From sequence record PZ154895.1: DNA of 64,000 nt. One strand, written 5' to 3'. Position 1 is the first letter of the stretch; each line of letters opens with the position of its first letter. Shown piece after piece: positions 3,023-57,373 of this stretch. The stretch comes from a phage. The notes beneath the pieces were generated by a model that was given only the letters and a program-made list of their open reading frames with translations, did no database searches and was not told the origin of the DNA. A program made the position numbers and the translations under genes.

Positions 3023-3302
3023 ATATAAATCCGACTTTGATGTTAATATTCACCGTGGTACATTTTGGGGAAATTACGTCGGTAAAGATGCTGGCAGCCG
3101 GGAGGCTGCCATTGAATTATTCAAAAAAGATTTTATACGTCGAATTAAATCCGGAGAAATAACTAAAGCACATTTAGAGCCTTTGCGTGGAATGAGGCTA
3201 GGATGCACATGTAAACCAAAGCCATGTCATGGTGATATAATAGCTCATATAGTTAACCGATTGTTTAAAGACGATTTTCAAGTTGAGGACTTATGCAATT
3301 AA
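2976..3302 (+). CDS. hypothetical protein with C-x-C-x5-C-H cluster (DUF4326-like, from memory)
   Basis: 108 aa; GNYVG ... [13 protein letters not shown] motif; overlaps neighbours at both ends. Confidence 0.5.
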
Positions 3303-5557
3303 TTAATGTTATCAAAAGTAGTGGTGTTTCTCAGAGCTTTGACCCGCAAAAAATTATTAAAGTTTTATCTTGGGCAGCTGAAGGAACATCTGTAGATCCT
3401 TATGAATTATATGAAAATATTAAATCATATCTCCGTGATGGAATGACAACTGATGACATTCAAACCATTGTAATTAAGGCTGCTGCGAATTCTATTTCGG
3501 TTGAAGAGCCTGATTATCAATACGTAGCTGCACGGTGTTTAATGTTTGCTCTTCGTAAGCATGTTTACGGACAATATGAACCACGTTCATTTATTGACCA
3601 TATTTCTTACTGTGTAAATGAAGGTAAATATGACCCTGAACTGCTGTCAAAATATTCAGCAGAAGAAATTACATTTTTAGAATCAAAAATTAAGCACGAG
3701 CGGGATATGGAATTTACTTATTCCGGGGCGATGCAATTAAAAGAAAAATATCTCGTTAAAGATAAAACCACTGGTCAAATTTATGAAACTCCGCAGTTTG
3801 CATTTATGACTATTGGAATGGCATTGCATCAAGATGAACCTGTTGATAGATTAAAACACGTTATTCGTTTTTATGAAGCAGTATCTACTCGACAGATTTC
3901 ATTACCAACTCCTATTATGGCTGGTTGTCGTACTCCAACTCGACAGTTTAGTTCATGCGTTGTTATTGAAGCAGGTGATTCGCTGAAGTCTATCAATAAG
4001 GCTTCTGCTTCAATTGTTGAGTATATTTCTAAACGAGCTGGAATTGGCATTAACGTTGGTATGATTCGTGCTGAAGGTTCTAAGATTGGCACAGGTGAAG
4101 TACGTCATACTGGTGTTATTCCTTTTTGGAAACATTTTCAGACTGCTGTTAAATCATGCTCACAGGGTGGAATTCGTGGCGGCGCTGCTACTGCTTATTA
4201 TCCTATTTGGCATTTGGAAGTTGAAAATCTTCTCGTTTTGAAAAATAACAAAGGCGTAGAAGAAAACCGTATTCGTCATATGGATTATGGCGTCCAGCTG
4301 AATGACCTAATGATGGAACGTTTTGGAAAGAACGATTACATTACTTTGTTTAGTCCGCATGAAATGGGTGGCGAACTTTATTATTCTTATTTTAAAGACC
4401 AAGACCGTTTCCGTGAATTATACGAAGCCGCAGAAAAAGACCCTAATATTCGTAAAAAGCGTATTAAAGCCCGTGAACTGTTTGAATTGCTCATGACTGA
4501 ACGCTCAGGAACAGCAAGGATTTATGTGCAGTTCATTGATAATACGAATAACTATACTCCGTTTATTCGTGAAAAGGCACCTATTCGTCAGAGCAACTTG
4601 TGTTGTGAAATTGCTATTCCAACAAATGATGTGAATAGTCCTGATGCCGAAATTGGATTGTGCACGTTATCTGCATTTGTGTTGGATAACTTCGATTGGC
4701 AAGACCAAGATAAAATTAATGAATTAGCAGAAGTTCAAGTTCGTGCTCTTGATAATCTTTTGGATTACCAAGGATATCCAGTTCCTGAAGCAGAAAAAGC
4801 TAAAAAGCGTCGAAATCTTGGTGTAGGTGTTACTAACTATGCAGCTTGGCTGGCAAGTAACTTTGCTTCTTATGAAGATGCTAACGATTTAACACATGAA
4901 CTATTTGAGAGACTACAGTATGGACTCATTAAAGCATCCATTAAGCTCGCCAAAGAAAAAGGACCTTGCGAATATTATTCAGACACTCGTTGGTCTCGAG
5001 GCGAATTACCTATCGACTGGTACAATAAAAAGATTGACCAAATCGCAGCTCCAAAATACGTTTGTGACTGGTCGTCGCTGCGGGAAGACCTTAAGCTCTT
5101 TGGCATCCGTAATAGCACATTATCAGCACTTATGCCATGTGAGTCATCTTCCCAAGTTTCTAACAGTACAAACGGTATCGAGCCTCCACGTGGACCAGTC
5201 TCGGTTAAAGAATCAAAAGAGGGTTCCTTTAATCAAGTCGTGCCCAATATTGAACATAACATAGACCTATATGATTATACATGGAAATTAGCTAAGAAAG
5301 GTAATAAACCTTATCTTACGCAAGTAGCTATTATGCTTAAATGGGTATGTCAATCAGCTTCAGCAAATACATATTATGACCCGCAGATTTTTCCAAAAGG
5401 AAAGGTTCCAATGTCAATAATGATTGATGACATGCTATACGGATGGTATTATGGCATTAAAAACTTCTATTATCATAATACTCGTGATGGTTCCGGTACT
5501 GATGATTACGAAATAGAAACTCCAAAAGCCGATGATTGCGCAGCGTGTAAATTGTAA
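3293..5557 (+). CDS. nrdA: aerobic ribonucleotide reductase large subunit
   Basis: 754 aa, same length as T4 NrdA; ATP-cone-like N-terminus; class I RNR large subunit context with nrdB downstream. Confidence 0.93.
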   Translation: MQLINVIKSSGVSQSFDPQKIIKVLSWAAEGTSVDPYELYENIKSYLRDGMTTDDIQTIVIKAAANSISVEEPDYQYVAARCLMFALRKHVYGQYEPRSFIDHISYCVNEGKYDPELLSKYSAEEITFLESKIKHERDMEFTYSGAMQLKEKYLVKDKTTGQIYETPQFAFMTIGMALHQDEPVDRLKHVIRFYEAVSTRQISLPTPIMAGCRTPTRQFSSCVVIEAGDSLKSINKASASIVEYISKRAGIGINVGMIRAEGSKIGTGEVRHTGVIPFWKHFQTAVKSCSQGGIRGGAATAYYPIWHLEVENLLVLKNNKGVEENRIRHMDYGVQLNDLMMERFGKNDYITLFSPHEMGGELYYSYFKDQDRFRELYEAAEKDPNIRKKRIKARELFELLMTERSGTARIYVQFIDNTNNYTPFIREKAPIRQSNLCCEIAIPTNDVNSPDAEIGLCTLSAFVLDNFDWQDQDKINELAEVQVRALDNLLDYQGYPVPEAEKAKKRRNLGVGVTNYAAWLASNFASYEDANDLTHELFERLQYGLIKASIKLAKEKGPCEYYSDTRWSRGELPIDWYNKKIDQIAAPKYVCDWSSLREDLKLFGIRNSTLSALMPCESSSQVSNSTNGIEPPRGPVSVKESKEGSFNQVVPNIEHNIDLYDYTWKLAKKGNKPYLTQVAIMLKWVCQSASANTYYDPQIFPKGKVPMSIMIDDMLYGWYYGIKNFYYHNTRDGSGTDDYEIETPKADDCAACKL

Positions 5558-6288
5558 TGAATTATCAAAAAATCTATAACGACCTAATTTCCCGAGCTCA
5601 GGCTCGGGAATCTTTATCAGAATATAAAGAGACACATCATATAATCCCTAGATGTATGGGAGGTTCTGATGATAAGGAAAATTTAGTTGAATTAACAGCC
5701 AGAGAACATTTTATAGCTCATCTACTACTATGTAAGATAAATGAAGGCCATTTTGGGCTTGCCTCTGCGTTAACGTTAATGGCAACAGATAAAGCTGGCA
5801 ATAGAATTAATAACAGATTGTACAGCTTACACAGAAAATTATTTGCTAAAGCTAATTCTGAGTTCTTTAAGAAATATTGGAAAAATAATCCTCATCCTAA
5901 AGGAATGTTAGGCAAGCACCATAAAAACGAAACTAAAGAGCATGTATCAAACGTGAATAGATATGCATGCCCATCTATAGAAATACATAAATTCTCATTA
6001 GATGGGGATTTCATAGAAACCTTTCACTCTATTGCGGCAGCGTCCCGGTCAGTTAATGGAAACGGGTCAAATATCAAATATTGTGCCGAGGGTAAATTTC
6101 AATATGCTTATGGATTTAGATGGTCATATCAACTTGATGCAAAGTTTGACAAAATAAAACCAAGAGATTATAAAGGAATCCGCGGTAAGAAATGGATTAA
6201 TAATGGAAGTGAATGCACGCTTATAGGTAAAGATGATATTATACCGCCAGGTTGGAATCACGGCAGAATTTTAAAGAGGAAAAATTAA
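5557..6288 (+). CDS. mobE: HNH homing endonuclease between nrdA and nrdB
   Basis: 243 aa; HNH motif HHIIPRCMGGSDDKENLVELTAREH; position matches T4 mobE between nrdA and nrdB. Confidence 0.75.
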   Translation: MNYQKIYNDLISRAQARESLSEYKETHHIIPRCMGGSDDKENLVELTAREHFIAHLLLCKINEGHFGLASALTLMATDKAGNRINNRLYSLHRKLFAKANSEFFKKYWKNNPHPKGMLGKHHKNETKEHVSNVNRYACPSIEIHKFSLDGDFIETFHSIAAASRSVNGNGSNIKYCAEGKFQYAYGFRWSYQLDAKFDKIKPRDYKGIRGKKWINNGSECTLIGKDDIIPPGWNHGRILKRKN

Positions 6289-15287: not shown

Positions 15288-15316
15288 AGGACTCCTTCGG
15301 GAGTCCTTTTTTATTT
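15288..15316 (+). terminator. rho-independent terminator
   Basis: hairpin aggactccttcgggagtcct with UUCG loop followed by tttttatttt. Confidence 0.8.
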
Positions 15317-16159: not shown

Positions 16160-16169
16160 AATAAAATGA

Positions 16170-18019: not shown

Positions 18020-18288
18020 TGTTTGTCGTTCACACTATTTATGAAAATGAAGGTAATACTACACGTGATTACGGTCACGTAAATCAATTTTTTAGATGCA
18101 ATCCAGAATTCCGAGCTCAAAAAGACGAACGAATTTTTAAAAAATGTGTAGAGCAAGGTTTCATTTACGTCAAGCATTGGATGCAAGGAAATAAAGTTAG
18201 AACTACATATCATAAGTCTTTGCCTGAGCTTAATGATGAATTGATTTATAATAGAGCTGTAAACCAAACCTTGAAGGATGAGCAATGA
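18019..18288 (+). CDS. hypothetical protein (89 aa)
   Basis: ATGA-coupled ORF immediately upstream of ligase. Confidence 0.5.
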   Translation: MFVVHTIYENEGNTTRDYGHVNQFFRCNPEFRAQKDERIFKKCVEQGFIYVKHWMQGNKVRTTYHKSLPELNDELIYNRAVNQTLKDEQ

Positions 18289-19748
18289 TTCTTAAAATTC
18301 TGAATGAAATAGCATCTATTAGATCAACTAAGCAGAAGCAAGCAATTCTTGAAAAGAATAAAGATAATGAATTGCTTAAACGAGTATATCGTCTGACTTA
18401 TTCTCGTGGGTTACAGTATTATATCAAGAAATGGCCTAAACCTGGTATTGCTACCCAGAGTTTTGGGATGTTGACCATTACCGATATGCTTGACTTCATT
18501 GAATTCACGTTAGCTACTCGGAAATTAACTGGCAATGCAGCAATTGAGGAATTAACTGGATATATCACTGATGGTAAAAAGGATGATGTTGAAGTTTTGC
18601 GTCGAGTGATGATGCGAGATCTTGAATGCGGTGCTTCAGTATCTATTGCAAACAAAGTTTGGCCAGGTTTAATTCCTGAACAACCTCAAATGCTCGCAAG
18701 TTCTTATGATGAAAAAGGCATTAGTAAGAATATCAAATTTCCAGCTTTTGCGCAGTTAAAAGCAGATGGAGCTCGGTGTTTTGCTGAAGTTCGAGGTGAT
18801 GAATTAGATGATGTTCGTCTTTTATCACGAGCTGGTAATGAATATCTAGGATTAGATCTTCTTAAGGAAGAATTAATCAAAATGACTGCTGAAGCCCGCC
18901 AGATTCATCCAGAAGGTGTGTTAATTGATGGCGAATTGGTATACCATGAGCAAGTTAAAAAGGAACCAGAAGGCCTAGATTTTCTTTTTGATGCTTATCC
19001 TGAAATTAGTAAAGCTAAAGAATTCGCCGAAGTAGCGGAATCTCGTACTACTTCTAATGGAATCGCCAATAAATCCTTAAAAGGAACCATTTCTGAAAAA
19101 GAAGCTCAATGTATGAAGTTTCAGGTCTGGGATTATGTCCCGTTGATAGAAATATACGGTCTTCCGGCGTTTCGTTTAAAATATGATGTACGTTTTTCTA
19201 AACTAGAACAAATGACATCAGGATATGATAAAGTAATTTTAATTGAAAACCAAGTAGTAAATAACCTAGATGAAGCTAAGGTAATTTATAAAAAATATAT
19301 TGACCAAGGTTTTGAAGGTATTATTCTCAAAAATACCGACGGATTGTGGGAAAATGCTCGTTCAAAAAATCTCTATAAATTTAAAGAAGTAATTGATGTT
19401 GATTTAAAAATTGTAGGAATTTATCCTCACCGTAAAGACCCTACTAAAGCGGGTGGATTTATTCTTGAATCAGAGTGTGGAAAAATTAAAGTAAATGCTG
19501 GTTCAGGCTTAAAAGATAAAGCCGGTGTAAAATCGCATGAACTTGACCGTACTCGCATTATGGAAAACCAAAATTATTATATTGGAAAAATTCTAGAATG
19601 TGAATGCAATGGTTGGTTAAAATCTGATGGCCGCACCGATTACGTTAAATTATTTCTTCCGATTGCGATTCGTTTACGTGAAGATAAAACTAAAGCTAAT
19701 ACATTCGAGGATGTATTTGGTGATTTTCATGAGGTAACTGGTCTATGA
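18285..19748 (+). CDS. 30: ATP-dependent DNA ligase
   Basis: 487 aa; adenylation motif KADGAR; recognised as T4 DNA ligase. Confidence 0.95.
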   Translation: MILKILNEIASIRSTKQKQAILEKNKDNELLKRVYRLTYSRGLQYYIKKWPKPGIATQSFGMLTITDMLDFIEFTLATRKLTGNAAIEELTGYITDGKKDDVEVLRRVMMRDLECGASVSIANKVWPGLIPEQPQMLASSYDEKGISKNIKFPAFAQLKADGARCFAEVRGDELDDVRLLSRAGNEYLGLDLLKEELIKMTAEARQIHPEGVLIDGELVYHEQVKKEPEGLDFLFDAYPEISKAKEFAEVAESRTTSNGIANKSLKGTISEKEAQCMKFQVWDYVPLIEIYGLPAFRLKYDVRFSKLEQMTSGYDKVILIENQVVNNLDEAKVIYKKYIDQGFEGIILKNTDGLWENARSKNLYKFKEVIDVDLKIVGIYPHRKDPTKAGGFILESECGKIKVNAGSGLKDKAGVKSHELDRTRIMENQNYYIGKILECECNGWLKSDGRTDYVKLFLPIAIRLREDKTKANTFEDVFGDFHEVTGL

Positions 19749-19933
19749 AAGCTTACTTAGAAACAATTGTCGTTGCTCAAAAAGAAGGTGGAGATGTTTC
19801 TACTTCTGTATCACAAATTATGATTGAATTTATAGATGCATATGCTTATAATAAATTCACAGAAACATTTGATGCCTACGAAAAAGGTCCAAAGTTTGAA
19901 ATATACCGTACTCTCTTACCAATAGATTATTAA
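19745..19933 (+). CDS. hypothetical small protein (62 aa)
   Basis: ATGA-coupled ORF after ligase. Confidence 0.45.
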   Translation: MKAYLETIVVAQKEGGDVSTSVSQIMIEFIDAYAYNKFTETFDAYEKGPKFEIYRTLLPIDY

Positions 19934-19957
19934 AGGCCTTCGGGCCTTTAATTTTAT
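19932..19957 (+). terminator. rho-independent terminator
   Basis: hairpin aaaggccttcgggccttt then aatttta. Confidence 0.7.
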
Positions 19958-19985
19958 AAATAGAATAAACACTAGAGAGGATATG

Positions 19986-22079
19986 ATGGAACTCATTACA
20001 GAATTATTTGACGAAGATACTACTCTTCCGATTACAAACTTAAATCCAAAGAAGAAAATACCACAAATTTTTTCAGTTCATGTTGATGACGCAATTGAAC
20101 AACCAGGCTTTCGTTTATGTACCTATACATCTGGAGGTGATACTAATCGTGATTTAAAGATGGGCGATAAAATGATGCATATTGTTCCTTTTACATTAAC
20201 TGCTAAAGGTTCAATTGCTAAATTAAAAGGTCTCGGTCCAAGCCCAATTAATTACATCAATTCAGTTTTTACTGTTGCAATGCAGACGATGCGTCAGTAT
20301 AAAATTGATGCCTGTATGCTCCGTATTCTTAAGTCTAAAACTGCTGGTCAAGCTCGTCAAATTCAACTTATTGCTGATAGACTTATCCGCAGTCGTTCAG
20401 GTGGCAGATACGTCCTTCTTAAGGAACTCTGGGATTACGATAAAAAGTATGCATATATTCTTATACATCGCAAAAATGTATCACTAGAAGACATTCCAGG
20501 AGTTCCGGAAATTAGCACCGAGCTCTTTACTAAAGTTGAATCGAAGGTCGGTGATGTTTATATCAATAAAGATACTGGAGCTCAAGTAACTAAAAATGAG
20601 GCAATTGCAGCATCTATTGCACAAGAAAATGATAAACGTTCTGACCAAGCTGTAATCGTTAAAGTTAAAATTTCCCGTAGAGCAATTGCGCAAAGTCAGT
20701 CATTGGAATCTTCTAGATTTGAAAGCGAATTATTCCAGAAGTATGAATCTACCGCAGCTAATTTCAATAAACCTGCTACCGCTCCTTTAATTCCCGAAGC
20801 AGAAGAAATGAAGCTTGGAATTAATTCATTAGCTTCTAAAACTAAAGCAGCAAAAATTATTGCCGAAGGAACTGCAGATGAACTTCACTATGACTATAAA
20901 TTCTTTTCAAAAAGTGAGGTTAATGAAGTTTCTGAAAAAATTAAAGATGTAATTCTTAATGCGATTAAAAATGAACCAACTACTTCAATAAAATGTTTAG
21001 AGAAATACGCAGCAGCTGTTAATAAATTCTTTGAAGAATACAAAGATAAATGGCTTGATAAACATAATAAAACCCGTAAAGGACAGCCAGATGAAGTCTG
21101 GGAAGAAATAACTAAAAATTCCTGGAACGCAGCAAAAACTAAATTCCTCAAACGAATGATTTATAGCTTTTCTGGAATTGGTGCAGGTCCAATGATTGAT
21201 ATTACCATTGCACGTGATGGTTCTAAATATACTCCATCGCAAAAGCGCGGTATTAGAGAGTATTGTGGATCAGGATATACTGACATCAATAATCTTCTTT
21301 TAGGCCGCTACAATCCAGAACGATATGATGTAATGAGCGAAAAAGAAATTGAATCTGCGATAAATAATTTAGATTCAGCTTTTGAAAATGGTGACCGTAT
21401 ACCAGAAGGCATTACAGTTTATCGTGCTCAAAGTATGACTGCTCCTATATACGAAGCACTAGTTAAAAATAAAGTGTTCTATTTCAGAAATTTTGTATCT
21501 ACTTCTTTAACTCCTATCATTTTTGGACGTTTTGGAATTACACATGCTGGTATCGGTCTTTTAGAACCAGAAGCTCGTAATGAATTAACAGTTGATAAAA
21601 ATGAAGAAGGAATAACTATTAATCCAAGCGAAATAAGAGCGTATAAAGAAAATCCTGAATACGTTAAAGTTCAAATAGGATGGGCAATTGATGGAGCTCA
21701 TAAAGTTAATGTTGTATATCCAGGAAGTCTCGGAATAGCAACAGAAGCTGAAGTTATTCTACCACGCGGATTGATGGTCAAAGTTAATAAAATAACTGAT
21801 GCTTCTAATAATGATGGAACAACATCTAATAATACAAAACTCATTCAAGCTGAAGTTATGACTACGGAAGAACTCACCGAATCAGTAATTTATGACGGTG
21901 ACCGTCTAATGGAAACCGGCGAAGTAGTTGCAATGACAGGTGATATTGAAATAGAAGACAGAGTTGACTTTGCATCATTTGTTTCATCAAATGTTAAACA
22001 GAAAGTAGAATCATCTCTTGGATTTATTGCGTCTTGCATAGATATTACAAACATGCCTTACAAGTTCGTTCAAGGATAA
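19986..22079 (+). CDS. alt: Alt ADP-ribosyltransferase (head-packaged)
   Basis: about 697 aa; N-terminus MELITELFDEDTTLPITNL; R / STS / E-x-E ART motifs (YRAQ, FVSTSL, EAEVILPRG). Confidence 0.9.
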   Translation: MELITELFDEDTTLPITNLNPKKKIPQIFSVHVDDAIEQPGFRLCTYTSGGDTNRDLKMGDKMMHIVPFTLTAKGSIAKLKGLGPSPINYINSVFTVAMQTMRQYKIDACMLRILKSKTAGQARQIQLIADRLIRSRSGGRYVLLKELWDYDKKYAYILIHRKNVSLEDIPGVPEISTELFTKVESKVGDVYINKDTGAQVTKNEAIAASIAQENDKRSDQAVIVKVKISRRAIAQSQSLESSRFESELFQKYESTAANFNKPATAPLIPEAEEMKLGINSLASKTKAAKIIAEGTADELHYDYKFFSKSEVNEVSEKIKDVILNAIKNEPTTSIKCLEKYAAAVNKFFEEYKDKWLDKHNKTRKGQPDEVWEEITKNSWNAAKTKFLKRMIYSFSGIGAGPMIDITIARDGSKYTPSQKRGIREYCGSGYTDINNLLLGRYNPERYDVMSEKEIESAINNLDSAFENGDRIPEGITVYRAQSMTAPIYEALVKNKVFYFRNFVSTSLTPIIFGRFGITHAGIGLLEPEARNELTVDKNEEGITINPSEIRAYKENPEYVKVQIGWAIDGAHKVNVVYPGSLGIATEAEVILPRGLMVKVNKITDASNNDGTTSNNTKLIQAEVMTTEELTESVIYDGDRLMETGEVVAMTGDIEIEDRVDFASFVSSNVKQKVESSLGFIASCIDITNMPYKFVQG

Positions 22080-22082
22080 ATC

Positions 22083-24140
22083 ATGGAACTTATTACAGAA
22101 TTATTTGACGGCGCTTCGGCGCCGGTTGTTAACTTAAATCCTAAGCATAAAATACCTCAAATTTTTGCTATTCAAGCTGGTGAAGAAAGTGTGCTTCCTG
22201 GATTTAGATTTTGTACATACACCTCTGGCGGTGATACAAATAAAAACGTTAAGCCAGGCGATAAAATGATGCATATCGTAATGATAGGTGTCAATGAGAA
22301 ACTATCATTAGTTAAACTTAAAAGCTTAGGTGGAAATCCAATTGGTGTCATTAATGCGGTTTTTGATACTGCTCTTCAAACAATGAAACAGTATAAAATT
22401 GACGCATGCCTATTCCGCGTACTAAAAAGTAAAACAAATGGCGCTGCTCGTCAAATTCAAGTTATTGCTGACCGTTTAGTACGTACTAAAGGAGCAGGTC
22501 GATATGTTCTTTTAAAGGAAATCTGGGACTATGATAAAAAGTATGCATATATTATGGTTTACCGTAAAAATGCCAATTTAGAAGACATTCCAGGTGTACC
22601 TCCTATTTCAACTGAGTTATTCACAAAAGTTGAATCAAAGGTTGGTGATGTTTATGTAGACGTTAAAACAGGTAATGCTGTTCCTAAAGCTGTTGCTGTT
22701 GCTGCTTCTATTGCTTTAGAAAATGATAAGCGTACAGATCAAGCTGTTATTCAGAAAACTAAAATTAGTCGTCGATTAGCAGCACAAGCTCAATATTCTA
22801 CTGTCGATGCTTCACTTCAGGGCGATAGCTTCGCTGCTAAGAAATATCAAGAGTTTGAATCTAAAGTTCCGGTATATAAAGCAGAAGGACCAATGAACTC
22901 TGGCGTTATTCAGATTGGTTCAAACTTCAGCAAAGGAGCTATCGGTGGTATGAGAAGTGCTTCTCGTTTTAAATCTAACGATTATGAACTAGAAAGCTTC
23001 CGAAATCATATTGCATTGGCCCATGCACGTTTACGTGATCCATCTATTAAATTACAGAGCGATATAACATATCAAGGTTCTCAGGAATATTTAAAGAATA
23101 AAGAATTCTTTGATTATAAAACCGATAAAATTTTGAGCGATCTTGCTGACATTAATATTTCTAATAGCTTTGATGTTATTAAGAAAATTGTCAATGATTT
23201 AGTTAAAGGTTCTAAAGCCACGCCAGATGAAAAGGTAGCTATTATTCAATTTGTCATGAATGGCATTTATAAATTGATTAATGAGTCTGCTTCTCAAGCG
23301 TATGAATATGCAAGTACTGAAGTACCCCCAAAAGGATTAACTCAGGCTGAGTCCGATGTAATTGAAGATTATTGTGCAGATTCATATGTTGAAATGAACT
23401 CGTTCCTCTTGGGTAAACCAGATTCTACTCGTGAAGAATACATGGAACGAGCTATTAAACACATCGAGACGCTGGATTCTGCATTCGCCAAAGGATCAGT
23501 TCTTCCTCCAGGAACTACGCTTTATCGTGGACAAGAAGTTACTTTTAAAACTTTACGCCATAATATTGAAAATAAAATGTTCTATTTCAAGAACTTCGTA
23601 TCAACATCGCTTAAACCAAATATCTTCGGTGAGTATGGTAAAAACTATATGGCTTTAGATGATTCCAGTGCAGTATTTTCTGGTGAAGGAGAAGGTTCAG
23701 TTGATGCTGAAGATTTAATGCATATGGGTAGTCACTCTGCTTATGCGAATGAAGATGCTGAAACTAGCGTGGGTATGGTAATTAAAGGAGCTGAGCGAAT
23801 CAAAGTTATCGTTCCAGGACATTTATCAGGATTTCCATCAGAAGCTGAAGTTATTTTACCGCGTGGAATTTTGCTGAAGATTAATAAAGTGAGTACGTAC
23901 ATGATGAAAGAAACTGCTTATAATAAGTATCTAATCGAAGGCACAATCGTTCCTCCTTCTGAACAATTAGAAGAATCGGTATATGATGGCGACCATCTAA
24001 TGGAAACTGGTGAAGTTCGTCCAATGGCTGGATTTAATCAATTCCTTGTAGAAGAATCAAAAGAAGAGGAAAACGAAGTTTCTCAAATCTTGGCTTCTTT
24101 GGTTAACATCAACGGAATGTCTAAAAAGTTCAAGATGTAG
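22083..24140 (+). CDS. Alt-like ADP-ribosyltransferase paralog
   Basis: 685 aa; same N-terminal propeptide MELITELFD and same R / STS / E-x-E motifs; diverged central region. Confidence 0.85.
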   Translation: MELITELFDGASAPVVNLNPKHKIPQIFAIQAGEESVLPGFRFCTYTSGGDTNKNVKPGDKMMHIVMIGVNEKLSLVKLKSLGGNPIGVINAVFDTALQTMKQYKIDACLFRVLKSKTNGAARQIQVIADRLVRTKGAGRYVLLKEIWDYDKKYAYIMVYRKNANLEDIPGVPPISTELFTKVESKVGDVYVDVKTGNAVPKAVAVAASIALENDKRTDQAVIQKTKISRRLAAQAQYSTVDASLQGDSFAAKKYQEFESKVPVYKAEGPMNSGVIQIGSNFSKGAIGGMRSASRFKSNDYELESFRNHIALAHARLRDPSIKLQSDITYQGSQEYLKNKEFFDYKTDKILSDLADINISNSFDVIKKIVNDLVKGSKATPDEKVAIIQFVMNGIYKLINESASQAYEYASTEVPPKGLTQAESDVIEDYCADSYVEMNSFLLGKPDSTREEYMERAIKHIETLDSAFAKGSVLPPGTTLYRGQEVTFKTLRHNIENKMFYFKNFVSTSLKPNIFGEYGKNYMALDDSSAVFSGEGEGSVDAEDLMHMGSHSAYANEDAETSVGMVIKGAERIKVIVPGHLSGFPSEAEVILPRGILLKINKVSTYMMKETAYNKYLIEGTIVPPSEQLEESVYDGDHLMETGEVRPMAGFNQFLVEESKEEENEVSQILASLVNINGMSKKFKM

Positions 24141-24195
24141 TTTACAAGTCACTCGTGTTGTGTTATAATAATCTTACTGACATAACATGAGGAAC
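24139..24195 (+). repeat. promoter/leader direct repeat copy B
   Basis: gtttacaagtcactcgtgttgtgttataataatcttactgacataacatgagga; matches 9084-9140. Confidence 0.85.
24140..24169 (+). promoter_or_regulatory. early-type promoter (GTTTAC -35, tataat -10)
   Basis: gtttac 24140-24145, tataat 24164-24169. Confidence 0.55.
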
Positions 24196-24200
24196 ACAAA

Positions 24201-24491
24201 ATGAAATCTTCTTTGCGCTTTTTAGGTCAAGAACTCGTAGTTGAAGGCGTTATTCCTGCTGATAACGCTTTTAATGAAGCGGTTTACGACGAATTTATCA
24301 AAATTTTTGGAACAGATAAAAAGTTCGGAATTTTTCCTTCTGAAAATTTTTCAAAGCCAGAACAGACTGAAAGCATTTTCCAAGGTGTAGTAACAGGTAA
24401 ATTTGAGTCAGAAGCTCCGGTAAAAATTGAAGTTTATATTGAAGACAGTTTAGTTGCTTCAGTTGCTGCTTTTATTTCATTCCGTAAATAA
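24201..24491 (+). CDS. hypothetical protein (96 aa)
   Basis: ORF downstream of repeated promoter; GAGGAAC RBS. Confidence 0.5.
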   Translation: MKSSLRFLGQELVVEGVIPADNAFNEAVYDEFIKIFGTDKKFGIFPSENFSKPEQTESIFQGVVTGKFESEAPVKIEVYIEDSLVASVAAFISFRK

Positions 24492-24518
24492 AAATATGGG
24501 GACCTTTCGGTCCCCATT
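24486..24518. terminator. bidirectional terminator between convergent genes
   Basis: hairpin ggggacctttcggtcccc flanked by A-run upstream and T-rich downstream. Confidence 0.7.
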
Positions 24519-25485: not shown

Positions 25486-26579
25486 TAAAAAGTCCCCGCA
25501 TATAAAGAAGCACGGTTTAACGTGATAATTTCTCTCATAGTAATCTCAAGAGTAAATGTACTAGGGAGGTTTGGAGCAATAGCTAATCCATTAAAGTTAC
25601 CATTAGGCGTTTTATCAAATCTGATGCTCTGTATTTGGCATGGACCAAATATTTCCGTTTTTCCATCAAACTTAGATGTTGCACCAAAGTTTTTCACCAT
25701 CCAAATTGTCGGGTTTGAAACTACTAGAACGTTAGTTAAGCTCGATGTCATTTTCTCAAATAGTGTTTTATTTTTAGCTGCGTCTTCCGGAGATAAAGGT
25801 TCAATTAACGTAGAACGATACCAATCATCTAAATACCCCTTTATTTCAGCAGCATATTGAGATTTGCCCGTTTCACCATAAGAAAAATAGTTAAAATATT
25901 GATAGATATTAATAATAGCCATTAAATCTTCTGTTGAACGTGGAGTCAAATCCCATGTAAACACTTTAGTTCTATTCTCAGCACCGCCATACATACTTCT
26001 AGCTGTCGTATAAATCTGTTCATTATTATCAGCCATTATACCTTGCGTTATACTTTCCAGTGCCCCAAATACTGCAGTTGAAGCAATATTACTTAACACA
26101 CCAGTAGCAGTACCTCCGCCTCTGCTGATAAGACTTTCTTGAACATCATTAAATCTATGTGATGATGTATCAACGTCAGATTTAGATCTCGGTAAAAGAA
26201 TGTTTGCGACAGGAGCTTTACTTATTGTTCCTGAATTATTGTTTGATATTAATCCATTTGATAGTTTTGATACTGTACTACTAATAGTGTTTCTAGCTGT
26301 ACTTAAAATACTCGAAGATGAAGAAGAGTAGTTAGATCTCATCGATCTAAGACTTCCAGAATCCCTAGATGACATATTGTATGCAGTAAATAATAATCCA
26401 TTCTTATATAGATCTGTTACCTGGAAGTCCCCTGTAGTGTCATTACCACTAGCACGCCCAGTTGGAAACTGGGCAGTGTATGTTTTAGTTACTACTTCTG
26501 ATTTAGTACTCTGTCCGGCTGAAATTTTCTCACCGGACTTTTTAATTAAATCAGCAGTTATTTCTTTAACAATTGCCAT
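25485..26579 (-). CDS. 48: baseplate tail-tube cap
   Basis: 364 aa, same length as T4 gp48; synteny. Confidence 0.9.
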   Translation of the reverse strand: MAIVKEITADLIKKSGEKISAGQSTKSEVVTKTYTAQFPTGRASGNDTTGDFQVTDLYKNGLLFTAYNMSSRDSGSLRSMRSNYSSSSSSILSTARNTISSTVSKLSNGLISNNNSGTISKAPVANILLPRSKSDVDTSSHRFNDVQESLISRGGGTATGVLSNIASTAVFGALESITQGIMADNNEQIYTTARSMYGGAENRTKVFTWDLTPRSTEDLMAIINIYQYFNYFSYGETGKSQYAAEIKGYLDDWYRSTLIEPLSPEDAAKNKTLFEKMTSSLTNVLVVSNPTIWMVKNFGATSKFDGKTEIFGPCQIQSIRFDKTPNGNFNGLAIAPNLPSTFTLEITMREIITLNRASLYAGTF

Positions 26580-26587
26580 ATTATTCC

Positions 26588-28360
26588 TTAATTAACTCCA
26601 GTCGCATCAAATACACCAGGAGCAGTCGTGCTCGTTACGGGTGTCATATTATGAACGACAGTATTTTTCTTAACAACATTATTAGTATTATTGATCGAAG
26701 GAGATGCTTGTTGAACAGGAGCTTGCTGTGCTTTGTTCTTTTCTATTACCTGGACTTGTTTTGCTTCTGGCGATTTAGCAGAAGTTTCAGGTTTGGCATT
26801 AGGCTGATTTTTCTTTAGCTCTTGATAAGTAGCATCAATTTTAGAAAATCTAGCAGCAAGTTCTTTTTTAACTGCCGGTGAATTATTTAAATCCGGGTCA
26901 TCCATCCGTTTTTTAAGGTCTTCATAGGCAGCTTCAACTGATTTAACCGTTGAGTCTTTACTCATATCAGCTGAATCAGCATATTTTTCAAAACGAATCA
27001 TCGCGGCACGGGCTTCATTAGCCTTCATTAAAGCATTTTTTCTTTCTTCTGGTGAAAGTTGCTTTAATTTTTCTTCTTCTGCTGCACGTTCTTCGTCGGT
27101 AGTTAGTGCTTCTTTATTATCAACGCCACGAATCCAGTTAGATGCACGAGTTTTCCAATTAGCAATTTTATCTAATCCTTTTGCTATCGGACCAAGGTCT
27201 CCGTTCATTCGTTTATCTTGATAATTTGCAACTTTTTCCTGGTCTTCTTTATTGAGAGATGCTCCAGTAGAATTTTGGAAATTTTCTAGTGCTCTTCCTT
27301 CTACTTCATCAGCGGTATCCTTCATGCCAGGAATGACTCGAAGAATTGCAGCAGATAATTTAGCCATTCCAAGCTGAATAAGTTCTCCTAAATTATAAAG
27401 AACCTTTCCAAGCCCTTCTACAATAGCTACCGTCAAACCGCCCCAATCTCCCTCTTCCCAGAATTTTTTAATTTCATCAATAGAACTAAAGATGCTCTGT
27501 AATAAAGGACCCCATGTTCCGGTTTCGCTAGAGAATTTAGTAAAGTTTGAACTAAACAAATCCCAAGCCTGCGAAAATTTATCTGACCAATATTTAAAGT
27601 GAACCATCAGCAGATCTATTCCAACAACAACAGCCAATATCATTGCAGTCATTTTAGCAGCTTCAATAGCAGCACTGACGGTATACTTAAATAGCATGCT
27701 TGATATTTTATCAGTAATTGAAATAGATTTCTTAAATCCAAAATCAACAGTCTTCGTTAATTTATCTAAAGCTTGAGATAATTTTAAGTTAAATGCGTCT
27801 TTTTTCTGTTTTTCTTCTGGCGATTCTTGTTTAGGTTCAACTGGCTGAGGGGTAGGGAAAAAATCAGCATCAGGATCATTATTAACTGCTTCAGGAGCCG
27901 GTAATAAAGGACCCACAGATTCAGCTGTATCATCCTCAACAACTTTAACAGGAATAGCGCTTTCAACCGTAGCTAAACTAGTTCCCGTCTGTTGAATTCC
28001 AGCTGTCTGAATTTTTTGTTCTAGTAAACTTGTTAATTTATCTAATTTGCTCCCGAGTGATTCACCGATTTCTTTATTAATATTATTGCCAATTTCGACA
28101 GTTTCAGCAATTAACTCAGAACCGGCAGTAGTATCACTCACTGCGCTTTCTACGTTGTCAATTGCTCCAATTATTTCATTCGATTTTTCTTCGACAGTTT
28201 GAGCAATTAATTCAGAAGCAGCTTGAGCATCATCCAATTTCGTAGATATATCGTTAAGTCCAGATAAAGTGTTAGAAGCGGATTTAGCCGCTTCCTGTGT
28301 TGGTTTATTATCTGAAATAACTTTTCTACGCATCGTTTGCATTTCTTGTGGCTTTTTCAT
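26588..28360 (-). CDS. 29: baseplate hub / tail length determinator
   Basis: 590 aa, same length as T4 gp29; synteny. Confidence 0.9.
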   Translation of the reverse strand: MKKPQEMQTMRRKVISDNKPTQEAAKSASNTLSGLNDISTKLDDAQAASELIAQTVEEKSNEIIGAIDNVESAVSDTTAGSELIAETVEIGNNINKEIGESLGSKLDKLTSLLEQKIQTAGIQQTGTSLATVESAIPVKVVEDDTAESVGPLLPAPEAVNNDPDADFFPTPQPVEPKQESPEEKQKKDAFNLKLSQALDKLTKTVDFGFKKSISITDKISSMLFKYTVSAAIEAAKMTAMILAVVVGIDLLMVHFKYWSDKFSQAWDLFSSNFTKFSSETGTWGPLLQSIFSSIDEIKKFWEEGDWGGLTVAIVEGLGKVLYNLGELIQLGMAKLSAAILRVIPGMKDTADEVEGRALENFQNSTGASLNKEDQEKVANYQDKRMNGDLGPIAKGLDKIANWKTRASNWIRGVDNKEALTTDEERAAEEEKLKQLSPEERKNALMKANEARAAMIRFEKYADSADMSKDSTVKSVEAAYEDLKKRMDDPDLNNSPAVKKELAARFSKIDATYQELKKNQPNAKPETSAKSPEAKQVQVIEKNKAQQAPVQQASPSINNTNNVVKKNTVVHNMTPVTSTTAPGVFDATGVN

Positions 28361-48757: not shown

Positions 48758-51898
<3,141 letters not shown>

Positions 51899-53673: not shown

Positions 53674-55137
53674 TTATGCTGGTGATAAAAAGGTAGAAAG
53701 TAATACCCATTCGCCGTCTTTACGAACGTAAGCTTGACCATCTTTTGGAGCTTCAGGAATATAACCTGCTTCTTGTAGAGCTTGAACATCACCTTGCAGA
53801 GAAGATATACTGCCTTTGGCTGTATTCACTTCTTGCGTAACTGATGCAATGTTGGTTTCGTTAGTTTTTATTGAGTTGGTTAATCCACGTTCTTCAACAG
53901 TTGAACCATTTGGATTAGTTCCATTTACTAAAGTATTTAACGCTACAACTTGCCCTTTAATTCCTGCGCTGTTATTACCAATCTCTACTTGTAGGTTTTG
54001 AACATCGTTGTTCAAGCTTGAAACAGAAGTTTCAATTGTAGAAACTCGGTTTAAAAGAGACCCAGGAGGAGAAGGTTGTCCACCGCTAGAATCAGTTCCA
54101 ACAATTTGGTTTAACCACGAAACATTCGCTCTTAAACCAGATGAAGTGTTTTCACCGACGATTCCATTTAGAGCTTCGATTGAAGTTGTGTTATCTTTGA
54201 TTTGGCCTTTAATACTCGAAGGAATATCATCTGAACCAATGGAAGTTTCAATAACGGTTAAACGCTGTTTAATACCTCCACTTTGATTTAGCTCTAAATT
54301 AATAGATGCAATATTATCAGTGTTTGTATTAACATTCGTAATAATCGAATTATTTCCTGGATATCCTATTGAGGTCTTAATAGCACTAATGTCAGATTCA
54401 ACTGTTGTCTGTTTAGTGTCAATTTCATTTAAGCGACTGTAAACAGTTTGTGAAAACGATGGTGGTTTAGGTCCAAGTTCTTCGCGAAGATTACCAACTT
54501 CAATAGTCAAAGAACCTACGTCAGATTCAATAAATTTTGTTTCTAATTCGCTTAAACGTATTCCCTGTGAAGTAATGACATCAGTATTATTAATAATGCG
54601 ATGCTTCATTCCTGTGCTAGGATTTCCTACAACAGGAAGACCATTAATATCTTGACCCGTGTATTGTCCAAGTTCACGCTTTATCCATAGTAAATCATTT
54701 CTGATCGTTCTGTATACAGAGTTGGCCTCGGAGTTAAATGGACCAATATCAGCAAGAATGCTGTCAACTGTACTATTGGTTCCATTTAATATTTCTGTAT
54801 GTTCACTGGTTAGCGTTTTAAGGTCAGAAATATCCTTTTTATTGATACTTATTTGGGCCAAAGCTTCAATATCACCAGATACATCTAAGATACCCTGAAT
54901 TGTTTTAATATCACTATTTGCGGTTTCTAAAGATGTTTTAAGTATTCCAATGTTTTTATCAAGAACTTCAACATTTCTTAGTACAGAAACTGTAGGTCTA
55001 TTCATTGAGCCTTCACTTCCATACTGTGTGTCAGCTCCTAATATTTCTTCGCCGTTTTTAATCCAGGAAATGCGGCTCTGGCCCTCTGCAGGAGGGCCGT
55101 CAACGAATGGTAAGTCATTCAGTACAATATCTGTCAT
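53674..55137 (-). CDS. wac: fibritin (whisker) protein
   Basis: 487 aa; long coiled-coil; C-terminal foldon-like [27 protein letters not shown]. Confidence 0.93.
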
Positions 55138-56717
55138 TCTTTTACCTTAATTATGTAGTTTAAAGAAATGTTCCATGGACGTGTTTCATTTCCAATTAAT
55201 TCAGGACGATTTAGTGTATATTTGGAATTTCGTTGTGATGCTGGGTCAATTTCATATCCATCATTGGTAAAGTATGAACGGTTATCCCAGTCAAGTCCTT
55301 TACGTGTACCAACAAAATTTGATCTACGGGTATTACCGAATGCTCCAGAATCATCATGCTCACCAAATCCGCCAGCGTGTTTATGATAAGACATCTGCTG
55401 TTTTTGTACTTCGCCAACATATCCACCGGTACAACCTACACCTAATCTAGGCTTACCAAATTGGTCATTACCATTAACGTTTGGATTTGTTAAGTGAGAG
55501 CCACGACCAGAGCCACGAACAAAAAGACCACGCATATCAGGTAATCCAGGATTTGATGAGCTTCCGCCGTATCTTGTTCCAATTCTAGAAGCATATAACG
55601 GACAATCTGATGCTGAAACAGTTCCACCATGACAGAAGCGCCAAGCATCACTAGGAAGGCTATCAGCCGCCCACATCATAATAGCTCCGACAGGAATAGT
55701 TCTATCTATTTCATTTTGCGTTACAACACGCTTACCTTGAATATAACCACCGGTCATGTTAACTGTTCCGGTAATATTTGCTCCACCTGAAGCTATTGTA
55801 AGCGTATTATTAATGCGAAGTGTTCCATTAATCGTTTGACCACCTCTTTGGTGGATAACGTCAGCATTCCAAGCTAATGCCGATGAAGCATCGCCTCCGC
55901 TCTGTGAACCGGCGGTTGTAGTTAATTTAACTACGCCTCTCATTGACGTTGTAGAACCGCGACCATTAAGAGTTGCACCAGTAACAGCAACAGAAGCATT
56001 ATTCGAGTTAACTTCTGATTGCGTTCCTAATTTAATTACGCCTTTATATTCTTCAGTAGCAGTAGAATTCATTAATGTATAAGGAGAAATTGCATAGCCT
56101 TCTCTTAAAGTTCCTTGACGAACTTGAGCTACTGTTGCTAATTGAACAACACCTTGGTCAGATTCGGTAGCTGTGGTTTCAGAAGGAGCAATTTGCGCAA
56201 TTAATTTAATAGCTAACTGTTGTGTTTTTAACGGAGTCATTGCAGTAGTATCATCAGCACCTGCCAATGCTTGCGGCAATGACGAAATTTTAATAACTCC
56301 ATTCTTTGATTCAGTTGAAACACGAGTTTCAAAGGCATTATTAAGGGCAACAGTAAATTTAGCAGGAGTTATAGAAGATTCATTATTAACTCCGGCAATT
56401 GCTTCATCATTGGTTGAATATCTTGTTAATCCGTAAACAGTTTCAGTTGCGTTTGGATAAGATAATCTTGTTGCCAACGTTGCTGGTGTAACTGCTTTGG
56501 TATTATCAGTTCCGTCGATAACTTCCTGTTCAGTGGCAAGAAATAAAATTCCCTTTGTTGTTGATGATGCATCAGGAACTCCATTTACACCAGCAGGAGA
56601 AATGGCTGCTATAGCAGCCTGAACATCAGTAATCTCTGCTGGAAAATTTGTGCCAGTTGGATCAAATTTTACATAGCGAGATTCATTAGAAACGTGTTGG
56701 TATGTATTATTACTCAT
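55134..56717 (-). CDS. 12: short tail fibre protein
   Basis: 527 aa; synteny and length. Confidence 0.92.
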
Positions 56718-57373
56718 GCTGTTCTCTCAAAATGATAAAGTACTATTGGAGTTTGCTGATTATCTAAAGTTACAGTTTGTGCACCAAGCAAATTCCATGT
56801 GCCATATCCAGGCTTAGATTCTGAAATAATTTCTTGGGAAATAGTTATTCCATATGTGGAATATGTGCTTAATACATGTTTCTGATTATCTAAATAAGTA
56901 ACTTCTAATTTACTACCATCGGTTGGATGGTCTTTATATGAATTGATAGCAGTAAATGACGCAATAGCTTCTTGTAGAGCAACACGAACTTTGGCGACAA
57001 ACTCAATAGCTGTCATTCCGGTTGTTGCTGAAACTGGAAGACCGAATACTAATACAGTAACAGGAGAACCAGGAGGAAGCGAATCATCTGTTACAGTTCC
57101 CGAAAATGCCCAATAATCAGTTTGAGAAACACCCTCAGGAGAAACACCAGTTTTATTAGTAATAATTGTACCAACGTCTTTTATAGAAAAATTATGAACG
57201 TCATTAATAGCTGATTCTACGTTTGGTTCATAAAATCCTTTCGCTAATTGAGAAATTGTCACTGACCCAACTGATTGACGATTCATTACATCGATGTCAC
57301 CAGTTTTAGGTCTAAAACCAAGAAAATCGGCTAAGCGGGAAATAACTCCCGCTTTATTATTAAGTAAACTCAT
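56714..57373 (-). CDS. 11: baseplate wedge / short tail fibre connector
   Basis: 219 aa from [20 protein letters not shown]; synteny. Confidence 0.88.

Follow-up and report, generated by a model that had tools for sequence, protein, structure and literature searches.

The element studied here is a C(UUCG)G hairpin at the junction of two tandem alt genes in a 64,000-nucleotide (nt) stretch of phage DNA (sequence record PZ154895.1), the whole of which was analysed and is referred to as the window. The window belongs to a Tequatrovirus (T4-like phage); its strand reads opposite to the standard T4 map, and hundreds of phages of Escherichia and Shigella match the region at ~98% identity. The upstream gene is alt itself and the downstream gene is a second Alt paralog, named altB here (Table 1). 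A spacer of 3 nt separates the alt stop codon (TAA, 22077-22079) from the altB start codon (ATG, 22083), and the altB Shine-Dalgarno sequence (AAGGA, 22072-22076) is contained within the final alt codons. In the T4 record, alt.-1 and alt.-2 are described as what is left of a duplication that involved the first part of alt. T4 keeps only ~390 nt of altB as these two fragments (L001, 4066-4451), which are split by the loss of 1 nt (AATAAAAACG to AATAAAACG) and followed by a large deletion, whereas the window gene is intact.

A hairpin with a 5-base-pair (bp) GC stem and a UUCG loop had been predicted at 22110-22123, inside the first codons of the second Alt gene. The window reads ggcgcttcggcgcc at this position, which is GGCGC-TTCG-GCGCC, and the 5-bp stem starts at codon 10 (GGC GCT TCG GCG CCG, encoding G A S A P), 31 nt past the alt stop, just as the original prediction had it. 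A sixth G-C pair, contributed by C22109 and G22124, lengthens the stem. In RNAfold, the minimum free energy and the centroid structure alike contain the 6-bp stem and UUCG loop, and the energy is -11.2 kcal/mol for the hairpin alone and -12.8 kcal/mol with short flanks. With Watson-Crick pairing throughout the stem and C-G as the loop-closing pair, the hairpin is of the extra-stable C(UUCG)G tetraloop type. Counted from the A of the altB AUG (A22083), the distance to the stem is 26-27 nt; the hairpin is beyond the alt stop yet inside altB codons. Covariance models of Rfam 15 gave no match at the hairpin and, in 21700-22500, only two opposite-strand matches at chance level (E above 1). Elsewhere in the window, UUCG hairpins are located at 15291, 16169, 19934 and 37049.

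The hairpin exceeds chance expectation under the coding constraint

All-GC 5-bp stems with a 4-nt loop are found five times in the window, against a mean of 0.1 in 200 dinucleotide shuffles of it; three of these stems carry a TTCG or CGAA loop, a combination absent from all 200 shuffles. Because the hairpin site is coding, a null that preserves the peptides is fairer than shuffling. Every coding sequence of the window was therefore recoded synonymously by window codon usage, with the peptides kept, in 400 trials. Of these, 13% produced one or more all-GC hairpins with a 4-nt loop and none (0/400) produced the TTCG-loop version. Given the altB peptide, a fold of this stability or better is expected with a usage-weighted probability of 0.0013. 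The codons at the stem are rare and GC-rich at all five free wobble positions (usage of GAC.23, GGC.16, TCG.054, GCG.093 and CCG.145), and the exact codon string has a usage-weighted probability of 7e-6. The hairpin is real and non-random.

Comparison of the two paralogs locates the change precisely. At the hairpin segment 12 of 21 nt differ between alt and altB, while the flanks are identical at 27/27 positions upstream and at 11/11 on the other side, and every alt-to-altB change within the 21-nt segment builds the hairpin. The N-terminal linker of Alt is hypervariable and prone to insertions and deletions across Alt proteins. The variability of the linker, the rare codons and the alt/altB divergence together make it more likely that the DNA explains the peptide than the reverse. 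We conclude from these sequence comparisons that it was probably the nucleotide sequence, rather than the peptide, that was shaped or acquired.

Conservation and variation among relatives

The identical hairpin is present in T4 at codons 10-14 of alt.-1, a decayed and frameshifted altB. Across 40 nt at the hairpin, ~476 of 490 Tequatrovirus records agree at every position, and the altB N-terminus is intact in ~400 of these records. In slur14 (L006), F1 (L050), EC128 (L055) and fPS-90 (L056), altB codon 6 is changed from GAA to TAA (window 22098); the paralog is truncated and the hairpin, still intact, is untranslated and stands 9 nt after the stop. Phage REP2 (L007, OQ174501.1, about 2511-2524) keeps the stem and carries a CGAA loop in place of TTCG (window 22115-22118), replacing Ser with Glu. 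This loop flip bears the signature of a palindrome-mediated or template-switch inversion at the DNA level.

altB is confined to Tequatrovirus at amino acid identities of at least 95%, and no homologue falls between 95% and 67%, a gap that makes a covariation test impossible. The altB loci retrieved from IMG/VR (two) and from metagenomes (five) are all identical at the hairpin. A junction hairpin as a general trait of tandem alt genes was ruled out by phages Merlin and MX01.

The hairpin is embedded in a low-polymorphism island (Table 1). Among 17 Tequatrovirus sequences, the flanks predict ~17 shared polymorphic sites for the island and one is observed (binomial P of 2e-7, computed over sites that are not independent). 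An extended RNA fold does not explain the island, the larger fold at the junction (22040-22180) being no more stable than shuffles (z = 0.22). One metagenome contig of 1086 nt (L064, OQVZ01027721.1) joins, at 218-340, an alt 3′ end and an altB-type junction to alt-type 5′ coding sequence (DEDTTLPIT) and has no GC hairpin. It may be a gene-conversion or alt-alt tandem variant, or a de Bruijn mis-join across the 27-mer common to alt and altB, and was not used.

Transcriptional setting of alt and altB

The genes around the junction are ordered DNA ligase (18285-19748), alt.1, alt, altB, alt.-3 (24201-24491), a bidirectional terminator and gene 54. The late promoter upstream of alt, at 19955, is the sole late-promoter match on the + strand between 14538 and 30781. 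Since there is only this one match, altB lacks a separate late promoter, and alt and altB form one late unit that runs to the terminator at 24496-24517; alt belongs to the late genes of T4 (PMC9697503). The altB hairpin is the sole strong structure separating the two genes. Between altB and alt.-3, at 24141-24169 (+), an early sigma-70 promoter close to consensus (TTTACA, 17 nt, TG-TATAAT) was noted, which fits the early class of alt.-3 in T4, where this gene is early at both the RNA and the protein level (T4 RNA sequencing (RNA-seq) and proteomics).

Table 1. Features of the alt-altB region and junction-proximal hairpins of the window.
Feature	Position	Strand	Description
C(UUCG)G hairpin	22109-22124	+	CGGCGC-UUCG-GCGCCG; 6-bp all-GC stem; altB codons 9-14 (D G A S A P)
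Tail after stem	22125-22139	+	GUUGUUAACUUAAAU; U-poor for an intrinsic terminator; constrained by codons V V N L N
alt	19983-22079	+	ADP-ribosyltransferase; 698 amino acids (aa) from first ATG; PF03496, E 1.5e-37
altB	22083-24140	+	Second Alt paralog; intact, 685 aa; PF03496, E 3e-20
Low-polymorphism island	22048-22156	+	109 nt; last 10 alt codons, Shine-Dalgarno sequence, altB codons 1-25 (-35 to +74)
UUCG hairpin and terminator	19929-19952	+	After alt.1, directly before the alt late promoter
Late promoter	19955-19962	+	TATAAATA; upstream of alt
Bidirectional terminator	24496-24517	both	Between alt.-3 and gene 54; closes the alt-altB-alt.-3 transcription unit
mobE internal hairpin	5589-5610	+	UUCCCGAGC-UCAG-GCUCGGGAA; -16 kcal/mol; from codon 11, 32 nt after the nrdA stop
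Junction-proximal hairpins	3092-3111, 5589-5610, 22109-22124	+	Strong, sense strand, intragenic
Junction-proximal hairpins	26456-26474, 28275-28294, 51008-51030, 55080-55098, 56604-56619, 57333-57354	-	Strong, sense strand, intragenic

Intragenic hairpins are concentrated near gene junctions

The altB hairpin is not the only one of its kind in the window. Of 13 strong sense-strand intragenic hairpins, 10 lie in the first 120 nt of their gene, where the null places 16% (P = 1.8e-6). Nine were confirmed against curated T4 gene starts, namely those of nrdA.1, mobE, alt.-1, 48, 29, 16, wac, 12 and 11. The synonymous-recoding P-values of the whole class are also low, but the hairpins had been picked as extremes and these values carry an ascertainment bias; they were not used, and the positional bias is the usable statistic. 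Most of the junction-proximal hairpins are without a U-tract, which favours a role independent of termination, such as an exonuclease barrier or a processing site, over pure termination.

It is possible, though doubtful, that the altB hairpin belongs to a punctuation system spanning the genomes of T4-like phages, in which strong hairpins would occupy the first ~40 codons of the downstream gene wherever genes abut or overlap (mobE, altB, nrdA.1, 11, 12, wac, 16, 29 and 48). Such a system would split long, mostly late polycistronic messages into units of differing stability, and its hairpins would dictate N-terminal peptides such as GASAP in altB. The clustering at junctions suggests that the mobE case, validated in T4 and described below, may belong to a wider layer of control over T4 polycistronic mRNAs.

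A candidate 3′ end for the alt message

The explanation we favour, tentatively and at somewhat less than an even chance, is by analogy with mobE: the altB hairpin would define the 3′ end of the alt mRNA, serving as an exonuclease barrier and a weak attenuator. The hairpin would then be a punctuation element of the late alt-altB transcript, placed inside altB for want of other room, given the 3-nt junction and an altB Shine-Dalgarno sequence that lies within alt. The nearest site able to tolerate a strong structure would be the hypervariable linker that follows the conserved altB N-terminus MELITELFD. It is a general property of 3′-to-5′ exonucleases that they stall at stable stem-loops. Once formed in the RNA, the C(UUCG)G hairpin would mainly halt such enzymes (PNPase, RNase II) after a cleavage farther downstream and leave a stable alt-only message; possibly, a minority of RNA polymerases would also terminate at the weak GUUGUU tract. 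By either route, expression of alt would be uncoupled from that of altB and would be higher.

Several lines of evidence support this explanation. The hairpin is unlikely by chance given the peptide (0/400 recodings; P of 0.0013), it is built from rare codons and it coincides with the divergence of alt and altB. One late promoter serves both genes, with no other strong structure between them. The hairpin has been kept where altB is dead as well as in nearly all Tequatrovirus records (~476/490), and it has both a precedent in mobE and a place in the junction bias of intragenic hairpins (10/13). The original prediction had proposed that the hairpin attenuates read-through from alt or stabilizes the upstream mRNA 3′ end. 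Both proposals gain from the mobE analogy and from the context of a single late promoter and retention in altB-dead lineages, and both lose by the poor U-tract and by the RNA-seq data considered next.

The results that weigh against a role in 3′-end formation concern termination in the first place. The hairpin had been credited with the same architecture as the intergenic terminator hairpins of the window; the stem and loop bear this out (AGGGGC-TTCG-GCCCCT at 16169 and 37049 is comparable), but the tail GTTGTTAAC does not, and its T-score of 1.62 is within the top 20% of the window background, against 2.45 for the mobE terminator and 2.35-4.3 for the intergenic terminators. A terminator scan of the window did not call the altB hairpin, and its d'Aubenton-Carafa-type score is negative. 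T4 RNA-seq assigns alt, alt.-1 and alt.-2 to one transcript class (Wolfram-Schauerte 2022, gene-level temporal classes), which implies that read-through is substantial; the Alt.-1 and Alt.-2 proteins were undetected in T4 in the data accompanying these classes. The literature on T4 3′-end maps (Term-seq, cappable-seq) yielded none for the altB hairpin site.

The other results on this side of the balance come from the coding constraint and from relatives. The peptide pattern G-A-x-A-P (GGN GCN xxx GCN CCN) leaves one stem pair of five free, the other four being set by the first and second codon positions, and 34% of the usage-weighted encodings of the peptide yield some perfect 5-bp stem with a 4-nt loop. 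The CGAA loop of REP2 shows that the UUCG loop is not essential. Tequatrovirus sutha (L012, 6560-6710, PV245934.1) lacks the 5′ part of altB together with the hairpin, alt being followed by the last 117 nt of altB, and the hairpin is thus dispensable for a viable phage. No comparable junction hairpin was found in the tandem alt genes of Merlin (two alt) or MX01 (three alt), and the conservation of the hairpin is inseparable from that of the surrounding 109-nt island.

Were the hairpin to define alt 3′ ends, this would explain how tandem paralogs can be expressed differently from one late promoter with no intergenic space, and it would be a case of an RNA element shaping the N-terminal linker of a protein. 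The stakes for this single hairpin are modest: some relatives do without it, and it is a further example of an element of a known kind. The T4 genome record has contained its sequence, within alt.-1, for decades. No paper on this particular site was found in the literature covered, to which the T4 genome review (Miller et al. 2003) did not belong.

Alternative explanations

One alternative, unlikely but the most serious, is that the hairpin has no selected function. The hairpin would then be the by-product of a hairpin-prone peptide in a tolerant linker, a palindrome perfected by template-switch mutation and carried in a low-diversity block. The G-A-x-A-P pattern and the probability of 0.34 for a perfect stem given the peptide agree with this, as does the mean fold of recoded altB sequences, which is already -6.9 kcal/mol. 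An all-GC hairpin arises somewhere in the coding sequence in 13% of recodings, the loop inversion in REP2 shows a palindrome open to template switching at the DNA level, and the dispensability in sutha, the absence from other genera and a conservation that is not specific to the 16 nt of the hairpin all point the same way. Such a by-product would nevertheless have to account for a TTCG loop on an all-GC stem, found in none of the 400 recodings, and for five rare codons together, with the probability of 7e-6 for the exact string. A linker that is hypervariable across Alt proteins also means that the peptide does not explain the DNA. Finally, intragenic hairpins are clearly biased to gene junctions and have a validated functional analogue in mobE.

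Translational control of altB is improbable. Here the stem, at +27 to +42, would lower or pace initiation, re-initiation or early elongation, and the setting is suggestive: the hairpin is within the first altB codons, altB is translationally coupled to alt (3-nt spacer, Shine-Dalgarno sequence inside alt), the initiation region from -35 to +74 is unusually conserved and the Alt.-1 protein is undetected in T4. The distance argues otherwise. Structures beyond about +15 to +20 barely affect initiation, and elongating ribosomes easily unwind about -12 kcal/mol. With its stem 26-27 nt past the AUG, the hairpin is outside the coverage of the initiating 30S subunit, and it persists where altB is untranslatable owing to the stop at codon 6. 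Modulation of altB initiation, a further role originally proposed for the hairpin, is thus unlikely given a stem that starts at +27, outside the 30S footprint.

Quite improbable, too, is an ancestral small hairpin at the Alt linker with an alt-specific role, of which the altB version would be a strengthened form. The alt gene has a perfect 5-bp inverted repeat, GAAGA-TACTAC-TCTTC (20013-20028, +), that is in register with the altB stem, both starting at the same nucleotide after GAC, and differs from that stem on both sides in three of five pairs; its stem is nevertheless ordinary, at -3.8 kcal/mol and the 33rd-43rd percentile, and its GAAG...CTTC follows from conserved E...LP residues. In other genera, MX01 alt1 (L010, 3413+) has AGGCA-CTC-TGCCT where L033 has AGGTA-CAT-TACCT, with one compensatory pair, and in seven of ~16 Alt clades (Alt loci including L013-L048) the linker segment folds better than 90% of segments elsewhere in the same gene. 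Against this, nothing is present at the linker in Merlin alt1, in MX01 alt2 and alt3 or in L048; the registers vary between clades, the signal is weak and inconsistent, and the clades are not independent.

A role at the DNA level, in which the palindrome would either mark a boundary for recombination or gene conversion of the tandem paralogs or be a cruciform or nuclease target, is highly improbable: the alt/altB identity (27/27 nt) does stop exactly at the palindrome, the REP2 loop inversion is a DNA-level event and the surrounding island is unusually low in diversity, but at only 6 bp the stem falls short of what a stable cruciform needs, neither a nuclease nor a repeat was found in association with it, and the strand asymmetry of the hairpin class (UUCG on the sense strand, hairpins just past same-strand stops) argues for RNA.

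Comparison with known systems

Promoter-early stem-loop (PeSL) cassettes of T4-like phages (Arbiol 2010, PMC2839356; Comeau 2014, PMC4122927) resemble the altB site in having a stem-loop followed by a sigma-70-like sequence, here TTGTTA N16 TAAAAT at 22126-22153. Unlike in these cassettes, the altB match, at 9/12, is at chance level (53 such matches found against 58 expected), departs from the T4/PST consensus TTTACW N17 TAYWAT and is located outside any hyperplastic region. A PeSL cassette was rejected on the chance-level promoter match and the misfit to the consensus.

The resemblance to canonical Rho-independent terminators of T4 and E. coli extends to a GC-rich tetraloop stem-loop downstream of a stop codon, with six G-C pairs and -11.2 kcal/mol. 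An intrinsic terminator calls in addition for a U-tract of at least five U in eight, and the tail GTTGTTAA has four T in eight. A canonical terminator was rejected on this tail; lacking a U run and uncalled by the scan, the hairpin would be a weak attenuator at best.

C(UUCG)G extra-stable tetraloop hairpins occur in T4 mRNAs (Tuerk et al. 1988, as related in Hall 2015, PMC4371310). The altB hairpin shares with them the UUCG loop closed by C-G, the GC stem and a position in a T4-type message just after a cistron. Tuerk and colleagues reportedly described these hairpins as intercistronic features, whereas the altB hairpin is inside an intact open reading frame and is untranslated only where codon 6 is a stop.

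The closest known system is the terminator inside T4 mobE, where the stem-loop lies 27 nt past the AUG (Wilson & Edgell 2009, NAR 37:7110, PMC2790892). In that study, seven of 11 clones from 3′ rapid amplification of cDNA ends (3′RACE) ended at the short U-tract of the stem-loop, RNase protection gave a termination of ~30% early and 50% late, and mobE was promoterless and co-transcribed with nrdA. A similar internal terminator has also been noted in segF (Edgell, Gibb & Belfort 2010, review, PMC2988022). The hairpin at 5589-5610 in the window, in a mobE-like HNH endonuclease open reading frame (5557-6288; 243 aa against 141 aa in T4), is the counterpart of this weak terminator validated by experiment. 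The two elements differ in strength: mobE combines a 9-bp stem of -16 kcal/mol with a UCUUUAU tail (T-score 2.45), and altB a 6-bp stem of -11 to -13 kcal/mol with the tail GUUGUUAAC (1.62). They differ also in that termination at mobE has been measured, at 30-50%, whereas at the altB hairpin it is putative, and in that altB is a paralog of its upstream gene and mobE a selfish endonuclease. In its other features the altB hairpin follows the mobE and segF pattern of a stem-loop tens of nt past the AUG, inside coding sequence, in a promoterless downstream gene that abuts the upstream one. Both mobE and altB have a GC-rich stem with a 4-nt loop that begins 26-27 nt after the AUG, both genes are promoterless (altB has only the chance-level sigma-70 match nearby) and start against the upstream stop, and both elements are inside coding sequence and conserved among T-even phages.

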